Shown here piece after piece: positions 48,603 through 49,735 of a DNA stretch of 64,000 bases. Positions within the stretch are counted from its first letter, which is position 1, and each line of letters begins with the position of its first letter. Location of the stretch: positions 27,763-91,762 of the forward strand of contig CAZQSY010000001.1 of assembly GCA_964596395.1 (NCBI GenBank), written 5' to 3'. This stretch comes from an uncultured Candidatus Saccharibacteria bacterium. Lineage in GTDB: Bacteria > Patescibacteriota > Minisyncoccia > Phycocordibacterales > UBA9973. The notes beneath the pieces are model-generated. The model worked only from the letters and a program-made list of their open reading frames with translations, made no database searches and had not been told where the DNA came from. Made by a program: the position numbers and the translations under genes.

Positions 48603-49048
48603 TTACCGTGATATTTGGTCTAATTTAGAATTTTTTAGGGATTGGTGAATAATTTTACCTAAGGAAACAAGGAAATACAGAACGGACAAAATCATAGTGG
48701 CAACGACCTTGAAATTTATAGACAAAAGAGCATCGTGTACACTCCAAGGTATTATTATTACGCTAAATAAATAAATAAATAAATAAATAAATAAATAAAT
48801 AAACTTTTCTTCCATTCTTCAAAAATCTCTTTTTTTACAAATAGAAACAAAATTGAAAGTACAAACACAGGAACCCATGCCATAAAAATAAGCTGTAAAT
48901 ATTTCACAGAGTCAATACATATGAAGCAATGCGTGTCGTATATTGTATAAAAAACTTTTCTAGGAAACAGGACAAAAAAACCTACAGTGCTTAAAAAACT
49001 TATAAGCAATAACTTTTTTCTTGAAAACCAATGAAGTAATTTATTCAT
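48603..49048 (-). pseudogene. small polytopic membrane protein gene split into two overlapping ORFs by frame change inside an (AAAT)9 tract; paralog of intact 49310..49735
   Basis: ORFs 48758..49048 and 48603..48815 both translate the tract as FIYLFIYL in different frames. Confidence 0.55.
48765..48800. repeat. (AAAT)9 tetranucleotide microsatellite inside coding sequence
   Basis: counted directly. Confidence 0.9.
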
Positions 49049-49084
49049 AATAATAAATCATTTAATAATTTGCCTTAACGAAGC

Positions 49085-49320
49085 CTTTATCGGTTGTAAT
49101 GCTCATAGTCGCTATTCCACTAACATACTTTTTCGAAACCACGGTTTTTCCGTCAGAAGAAAAGAGCCGTATTTCCGATTTGTCAGCGGTTGGATTATAG
49201 TGGACAGCGACAATTTTCTTGTCGTTCTGAAGAAAGGTTTGAATCAGTTGGGTAATGGCCGTGTCCTGATGTTCATACTCTACTGAAAGAATGCTCTTGG
49301 AAACTGCCGTTATTGTACCA
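49085..49320 (-). other. promoterless, in-frame ~88-codon copy of the C-terminus of the giant protein (…KSILSVEYEHQDTAITQLIQTFLQNDKKIVAVHYNPTADKSEIRLFSSDGKTVVSKKYVSGIATMSITTDKGFVKANY*), candidate silent cassette
   Basis: ~85-90% nt identity to 49775..50010; no frameshifts; preceded by stop of small gene. Confidence 0.6.
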
Positions 49321-49735
49321 TCTGATTTTGATCAGATTTTTGTAAGGATTTATAGATGATTAAAAATAAAGAAATGATTGAATACAAAATAGATCCAAAA
49401 AAAGAAATGGCTTCCCTCTGAAACCAAATATATCCATCCCCTTGTGTTGGACTTAGAAAATAAATAAATAAATAAATAAATAAATAAATAAAAGTAAATT
49501 TTTTCCATTCTCTAAATTTTTCGTCTCTTAGAAAAACAACAATTGCCGTAAAAATTAAAATAGGGATAAACACTGCAAATAAGTTAAACTTTCTGTCGTC
49601 AATACAACAAAAATTCTTATAAAAAAAGGGCAAGTCCAGAGCCCTATTAAAATATGATATAAAATATATCAATACCATCAATATAGCCCCAACTACCATT
49701 CTTCTCCTTGTAAACCAATTTAATATATTATTCAT
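49310..49735 (-). CDS. small polytopic membrane protein with FIYLFIYLFIY segment encoded by (AAAT)8
   Basis: 141 aa, 4 TM; intact paralog of 48603..49048. Confidence 0.5.
   Translation of the reverse strand: MNNILNWFTRRRMVVGAILMVLIYFISYFNRALDLPFFYKNFCCIDDRKFNLFAVFIPILIFTAIVVFLRDEKFREWKKFTFIYLFIYLFIYFLSPTQGDGYIWFQREAISFFGSILYSIISLFLIIYKSLQKSDQNQMVQ
49458..49489. repeat. (AAAT)8 tetranucleotide microsatellite inside coding sequence
   Basis: counted directly. Confidence 0.9.

Follow-up and report, generated by a model that had tools for sequence, protein, structure and literature searches.

The locus and its two small membrane-protein genes

In this work, we analyzed a 64,000-nucleotide (nt) stretch, here called the window, of contig CAZQSY010000001.1 (positions 27,763 to 91,762) from an uncultured Candidatus Saccharibacteria bacterium, in which two genes for small membrane proteins, named gene A and gene B, each carry a perfect (ATTT)n tract within the coding sequence. 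An earlier note on this DNA had proposed the two tracts as a slipped-strand phase-variation switch. All parts of the locus lie on the minus strand. A large gene (49750..53607) encodes a 1285-amino-acid (aa) protein with a hydrophobic N-terminal signal-like segment, Gly-rich repeats and, in a central position, an LCAT-like alpha/beta-hydrolase domain (Pfam LCAT, E=8.2e-13, residues 620-821). Gene B (49310..49735), which appears in the list of open reading frames (ORFs) as an intact ORF of 141 aa and is the in-frame (‘ON’) copy, starts 14 nt 3' of the end of the large gene. It is followed by a 269-nt fragment (49052..49320) that duplicates the 3'-terminal 89 codons of the large gene and lacks the rest of it; this fragment was recognized as a direct repeat and by its translation. 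After it comes gene A (48603..49048), a paralogue of gene B that the same list gives as split in two frames and that is the out-of-frame (‘OFF’) copy.

Tandem Repeats Finder detected both tracts as perfect repeats of period 4, on the minus strand, in agreement with what the earlier note had read from the sequence. The gene B tract (49458..49492) spans 35 nt (8.8 copies, 100%) and consists of 8 full AAAT units plus AAA; the gene A tract (48764..48803) spans 40 nt (10.0 copies of TAAA, 100%), made up of 9 full AAAT units (48765-48800) and bases that flank them. The counts of 8 units with an intact 141-aa ORF in gene B, and of 9 units with two overlapping ORFs in gene A, were borne out as well. 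These two tracts were the only repeats above threshold in a regular-expression census of mono- to hexanucleotide repeats in the window, and the only sites matched there by a 24-nt (AAAT)6 probe with at most one mismatch, which found 0 matches in 100 dinucleotide-preserving shuffles.

In both genes the tract is translated as FIYLFIYLFIY and forms the third of four predicted transmembrane helices, in gene B at about codons 82-95 of 141. An AlphaFold2 model of the protein (mean predicted local distance difference test score, pLDDT, of 80.9) shows four long helices, of which the tract is the third. When (ATTT)3 is read in the three frames, it gives IYLF, FIYL or LFIY, that is, one cyclic peptide, and therefore a slip alters only what comes after helix 3.

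Gene A consists of a first ORF of 96 aa (48758..49048) ending in ...FIYLFIYLFIYLA* and a second ORF of 70 aa (48603..48815) starting with MEEKFIYLFIYLFIYLFSV..., which overlaps the first across the tract. The two frames are 2 nt apart, and the first ORF stops one codon past the tract. Simulated changes in unit number support the claim that each 4-nt unit shifts the frame: the addition of one unit to gene A, or the removal of two, produces a single continuous ORF, and the removal of one does not. With two units removed, the spacing between the WKK and PW motifs is exactly that of the intact relatives. The conserved Glu-Trp codons (GAA TGG) create an alternative-frame ATG just 5' of the tract, located at 48813-48815 within GAATGGAAG on the minus strand in gene A and also at 49506-49508 in gene B, and the distal half of the split gene A is therefore an ATG-initiated ORF that reads through the repeat. 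Both pieces of the split gene would contain the FIYL helix.

The protein encoded by the repaired gene A shares 31% aa identity with that of gene B, and the two belong to different subfamilies, the PW...D type (gene A) and the PTQGDG type (gene B). For both reasons, sequence comparison places them as old paralogues, each of which has retained a perfect repeat. The description of the two genes as duplicated did not hold up, the pair being ancient paralogues, and the recent duplicate at this locus is the 269-nt fragment that lies between them. A recent tandem duplication of the small gene was rejected in view of the 31% identity.

The small protein had no match in Pfam, NCBIfam or PADLOC. A word-indexed protein search with gene B returned 28 homologues (E down to 1e-54) from metagenome-assembled genomes of Patescibacteria, Nomurabacteria and Paceibacterota, and a profile search against 1.84 billion representatives returned 874 clusters, formed at 50% identity, at E≤1e-3, and 165 at E≤1e-10. 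About a fifth of 176 fetched proteins contain the repeat peptide, 22 of them with 8 aa or more of cyclic FIYL; these proteins span several subfamilies, and most of the fetched proteins have an ordinary hydrophobic helix at that place. We then compared 11 genome and 24 metagenome loci, together with 10 more obtained by exact-protein look-up (numbered with the prefix L below); five pairs among them are the same sequence deposited twice (L001/L013, L002/L014, L016/L017, L024/L030 and L025/L026). In 13 loci with enough upstream sequence, the small gene or genes directly follow a large LCAT-like homologue, 33-65% identical to the window protein over the central region. The family product is modeled as a predicted four-helix membrane protein whose gene adjoins that of a secreted LCAT-like protein. 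From gene order only, our guess is that the small protein might anchor the LCAT-like enzyme to the membrane, act as its partner or protect it; a literature search on LCAT-like proteins in Patescibacteria gave nothing relevant.

Tract length and reading frame among related loci

A census of simple repeats in 259,870 nt of distinct related loci plus the window placed 31 of 32 inside genes of the small-protein family. The sole simple repeat outside them is a G10 homopolymer (L021, 356-365). A pure ATTT-period stretch of 20 nt or more occurs in 25 family copies. Sixteen of these are in frame; the other nine, all split exactly at the tract, are window gene A, copy 2 of L008, of L021 and of L031, copies 1 and 2 of L033, L034, L035 and the L036 gene P0027. 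Where the run is shorter or interrupted, only 2 copies in 24 are split (p=0.037 by a Fisher test against the pure runs, on a rough count). Eight split copies show no other lesion: they begin with a start codon, are open in both halves and end normally (...YKSLKK-like C-terminus).

Gene A has an intact orthologue, P0177 (L036 10568-10990, 140 aa), with 87.6% nt identity and one gap of 8 nt, which lies in the tract and amounts to two units, gene A having two more than P0177. This is the sole indel in the coding sequence, and the additional disabling mutations that the earlier note had said would speak against its proposal were looked for in gene A and not found. The P0177 tract is additionally interrupted by a T→C change. 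Both halves of gene A have stayed open. Relative to P0177, its ratio of nonsynonymous to synonymous substitution rates (dN/dS) is 0.225 for the whole gene, with 0.09 for the part preceding the tract and 0.42 for the part following it, all from few substitutions; gene A was therefore a working gene for most of its divergence from P0177.

Losses of units were found in other lineages. L035 (split) and L025 (intact) are 77.5% identical over the aligned region and differ by one unit in the gene, L035 having one fewer; and the P0027 gene of L036 (split) is one unit short of the FIYLFIYLFIVIITPW of its intact relatives, which is the in-frame pattern of its subfamily. Unit changes have thus gone both ways, with losses in L035 and the P0027 gene and a gain in window gene A. 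Three independent assemblies from one groundwater well share exactly the same 6-unit, out-of-frame allele of the P0027 gene.

At the level of strains, the frame state differs between L044 (ENA ERZ27253378) and L033 (JGI1358J11329), which are 98.45% identical over 3,747 nt. Their alignment has two gaps in total, and both fall inside repeats of the small gene: (i) one ATTT unit, with 7 units in frame in one sequence and 6 out of frame in the other, and (ii) a (TC)n/T-run close to codon 20 that differs by a net 1 nt (L033 1000-1030 vs L044 290-320) and suggests a second slippage-prone site. The flanking 848 nt are 96.9% identical and gap-free between L045 and L033. A further protein search for near-identical variants of the 10-unit genes of L001 found none.

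Taken together, the comparison of strains that had been proposed as a check revealed recurrent, independent gains and losses of units, with the L044/L033 indels confined to the repeats of the small gene. By these alignments the tract is a hypermutable site, and changes in its length directly cause the loss of frame, often with no other lesion contributing. On the same evidence, frame loss by a tract change has arisen many times independently, including between near-identical strains.

Purity of the repeat and other repeat types at helix 3

The pure repeat is not what independent codon choice would produce. Outside the tract, family genes use TTT, ATT, TAT and TTA at frequencies of.82,.57,.77 and.38 for their respective residues, from which a pure repeat for FIYLFIYLFI is expected by simple arithmetic in about 0.009 (0.9%) of cases. 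An uninterrupted run of at least 28 nt is found in 12 of 13 distinct intact genes encoding this peptide, and codon bias alone was therefore rejected as its source. The Thr codon just before the tract varies (ACT/ACA/ACC), from which we take the synonymous sites to be saturated.

Other repeat types occupy the same position. An 8-nt unit (TTATTTAC) is repeated four times in L005 (6087-6118), and 12-nt periodic versions occur in L012 (134-538), L015 (3411-3815), L010 (5983-6426), L018 (804-1214) and L003 (944-1351). This spread of variant units as blocks is the expected product of slippage-driven homogenization. In the 12-nt versions a frame shift is impossible (‘frame-safe’), and in these lineages the gene looks locked in the ON state. 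In a third subfamily, the repeat located at helix 3 is (AT)n, with (AT)11 in frame in L027 (1444-1757, FTNIYIYIYIV) and (AT)9 out of frame in copy 3 of L001 (9906-10340), in which a (CT)7 repeat in helix 4 causes a second frame change.

A candidate phase-variation switch and its alternatives

On balance, we cautiously favor, as somewhat probable, the reading in which the (ATTT)n tracts are slipped-strand frameshift ON/OFF switches, that is, loci of the contingency type. In such a switch, replication slippage would add or drop 4-nt units; helix 3 would be preserved at any repeat number, with all frames encoding the cyclic FIYL peptide; and with a change in unit number other than by multiples of three, the frame would be lost for helix 4 and the C-terminal tail, leaving a truncated three-helix protein, which for gene A would at present be the 96-aa product. 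In the window, gene B would be ON with its 8 units and gene A OFF with its 9, the latter restorable by the gain of one unit or the loss of two. Switching would alter the handling or display of the neighboring secreted enzyme by the cell. We infer that unit changes are frequent and reversible within the population.

Phase variation is recognized by variation at a single locus, by reversibility and by a detectable switching rate (PMC11868660). In the pairs L044/L033, gene A/P0177 and L035/L025, the frame state follows the unit number at a single locus, and both tracts of the window are uninterrupted repeats within an ORF, built of units whose length is not divisible by three.

Several observations weigh against a switch. 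The tracts are short (6-10 units), and a single in-frame length is seen among the intact relatives, because the length of the helix is fixed. Slippage together with selection for the reading frame could be enough to maintain a pure repeat, even if switching itself were never selected for. Four split copies carry extra lesions (copies 1 and 2 of L033, copy 2 of L005 and copy 3 of L001), and some split copies are on their way to becoming pseudogenes. The out-of-frame copies are mostly distal and possibly redundant, and in the window, L008, L021, L005 and L045 the copy adjoining the large gene reads in frame. Lastly, the 6-unit allele of the P0027 gene looks fixed at the consensus level.

The main alternative is a by-product repeat followed by decay, which we hold to be possible, if rather doubtful. 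It states that the FIYL helix is what matters, that AT-rich codons together with slippage-driven homogenization produce the pure ATTT repeat, and that this repeat is a mutational weak spot, the split copies being young pseudogenes. It is consistent with the mainly distal location of the out-of-frame copies and the in-frame state of the copy adjoining the large gene, with the further lesions in four split copies, with the identity of one out-of-frame allele in three assemblies, with the visible decay of the region 3' of gene A in the window, and with the dispensability of the repeat, which is interrupted or of 12-nt period in many lineages and missing from most of the wider family. It accounts less well for eight split copies in which both halves are open and no other lesion is present, for the purifying selection on gene A relative to its orthologue (dN/dS 0.225), for the pure run in 12 of 13 genes when synonymous interruptions were freely available, for the different repeat types at the same position in different subfamilies, and for a frame state that differs between near-identical strains. 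Decay and switching share the same molecular event and differ only in its rate, its reversibility and its benefit.

It is also conceivable, but quite improbable, that the split genes are still expressed, either in full by ribosomal frameshifting or as two working pieces, the downstream one being translated from the alternative-frame ATG of the Glu-Trp codons (GA-ATG-G). Such expression would fit the two ORFs of gene A, which overlap across the tract and each encode the FIYL helix, the start of the downstream ORF at the ATG inside GAATGGAAG, and the open state of both halves in eight split copies. However, ATTT repeats do not match the usual slippery heptamer; the shift required is +1 in some copies and -1 in others; and no downstream stimulatory structure was seen, although none was specifically searched for. 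As to expression in two pieces, the ATG is missing in many relatives, which have TCTTGG or GTTTGG instead.

Least credible is a sequencing or assembly artefact, by which the repeat number of gene A would have been mis-called in a gene that is really intact: repeats do assemble less easily than unique sequence, and no entry of the gene-position index corresponds to gene B, to its NCBI-called form (P0001), to the 96-aa gene A product or to the large protein, but the difference between gene A and its orthologue is exactly two whole units, the 40-nt tract is shorter than a short read, comparable out-of-frame alleles are found in many unrelated assemblies, and one of these is base-for-base identical in three independent assemblies, which argues that the split is not an assembly error.

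Comparison with known repeat-switched systems

Contingency genes of Haemophilus influenzae include lic1A, lic2A, lgtC, the hgp genes and mod. By analogy with the tetranucleotide-repeat contingency genes of this species (Hood et al. 1996, as presented in the review PMC11868660), the tract system described here would work in a mechanistically similar way. In both, a perfect 4-nt repeat lies in an ORF, and a gained or lost unit moves the frame and shortens the product; each of several paralogues has its own tract, and the repeat number varies between strains. The earlier note had gone further in calling the architecture the classic one of contingency loci, and this did not hold up, since here the tract sits in mid-gene (codons ~82-95 of 141) and codes for a transmembrane helix whose length is fixed, with one in-frame number seen. 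The present tracts further differ from those of Haemophilus in being short (6-10 units), in giving the same peptide in all three frames, and in belonging to an uncultivated Patescibacterium, a phylum that would be new for such a switch.

Neisseria opa genes, whose products are outer-membrane adhesins, carry CTCTT pentamer repeats in the region coding for the leader peptide. They resemble the present family in forming a multigene envelope family in which each copy has its own coding repeat and goes in or out of frame independently of the others, and in having a repeat that encodes a hydrophobic, membrane-inserting segment. In opa, however, the pentamer is at the 5' end, within a cleaved signal peptide, and the adhesin function is known, whereas here the repeat encodes a helix of the mature protein, two-thirds of the way along a predicted four-helix protein.

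Surface variation by simple repeats and by recombination is also found in Mycoplasma (Vlp, vlhA and Vsa; reviewed in PMC11868660). Similarities include a host-dependent bacterium with a reduced genome, local hypermutation of envelope genes and the clustering of the variable genes. In contrast, the Mycoplasma repeats lie mostly in promoters, or variation proceeds by site-specific inversion, and the targets are lipoproteins; there is no sequence relationship between those systems and the small membrane-protein family.

C-terminal cassettes of the large gene

The window, L008 and L036 contain 5'-truncated C-terminal copies of the large gene, each followed by a small membrane-protein gene. The repeated segments are at 49052-49320 and 49740-50008 in the window, at 5014-5922 and 6359-7267 in L008, and at 5126-5608, 6067-7026 and 9085-9553 in L036. 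In the window, the 269-nt fragment between genes B and A matches the end of the large gene at 87% (49052-49320 vs 49740-50008), with an identical run of 101 nt (49153-49253 = 49841-49941); its frame is open through to the stop and has no start codon. Gene B lies between the two window copies, whose recombination with each other would remove it and set gene A directly after the large gene.

Decayed remnants lie 3' of gene A on the same strand (48199..48595), as recognized from Pfam, repeat and blastn matches. They comprise a fragment of a phytase-like/MBG_2 gene, in the form of a 66-aa ORF at 48376..48576 (Pfam Phytase-like, E=1.5e-5), and a piece of about 100 nt, at about 48306→48199, that resembles 50160→50063 of the large gene (repeat D3, 85%). 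By blastn, the remnants match L036 at 8416-8586 as well as four C-terminal cassette copies in L036.

Orphan arrays of C-terminal cassettes are known from polymorphic toxin systems (Rhs, CdiA-CT/CdiI). The likeness lies in a large secreted gene followed by a small gene and then by truncated C-terminal copies with further small genes. Those systems have divergent toxin tips, whereas the fragments here are 70-87% alike; moreover, the only recognizable enzyme domain (LCAT-like) of the large protein is central, and the small genes encode polytopic membrane proteins. A Pfam scan found no toxin or immunity families, nor a toxin domain at the C-terminus of the large protein. Membership in a polymorphic toxin/immunity array was therefore rejected on its defining test, the C-terminal fragments being mutually alike (70-87%), not divergent, and lacking a toxin tip.

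It is tempting to go one step further and to propose, tentatively and with less confidence than we place in the switch itself, that Patescibacteria possess a lineage-wide contingency system of two layers, in which small proteins would be switched by ATTT or AT repeats within a helix, and recombination between cassettes would reshuffle which small gene follows. Each small-gene copy would in this case be paired with the secreted LCAT-like enzyme or with its C-terminal cassette. Bacteria of the Candidate Phyla Radiation (CPR) are thought to live attached to a host and to lack lipid synthesis, and their surface variation is known mainly from diversity-generating retroelements. If true, the two-layer system would give an ultra-small episymbiont a stochastic means of varying the machinery by which it contacts its host or acquires lipids, and no repeat-based phase variation would have been described in the CPR before it; full-text literature searches returned no report of simple-repeat phase variation in Patescibacteria or the CPR. 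With a repeat-driven switch, the conserved small-protein family and its LCAT-like neighbor would make a concrete candidate for a host-interaction module, with a marker that can be read straight from metagenomic reads. For research on phase variation, the tract is unusual in that it encodes a transmembrane helix that reads alike in all three frames.

Neighboring genes and variant loci

An Rfam scan of the window detected tRNAs only, and promoter and terminator scans did no better than chance. ORFs of 209 aa (47269-47898) and 130 aa (46558-46950) had no Pfam or NCBIfam match, and the former had no PADLOC match either. A few genes downstream of the locus are those of a SET-domain protein (46721-47272; Pfam E=1e-13) and of a histidine kinase with a seven-transmembrane N-terminal region (44882-46555).

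In L001, the third LCAT-like gene is split into overlapping ORFs of 956 aa and 222 aa (6410-9280 and 9231-9899) and is followed by a doubly frameshifted small gene, so that the whole unit appears inactive. In L043 (664-1530; Logan assembly ERR3858114), the intact gene A orthologue P0177 adjoins an integrase/transposase gene of the rve family, and the cassette context may be mobile or rearranged in some genomes.

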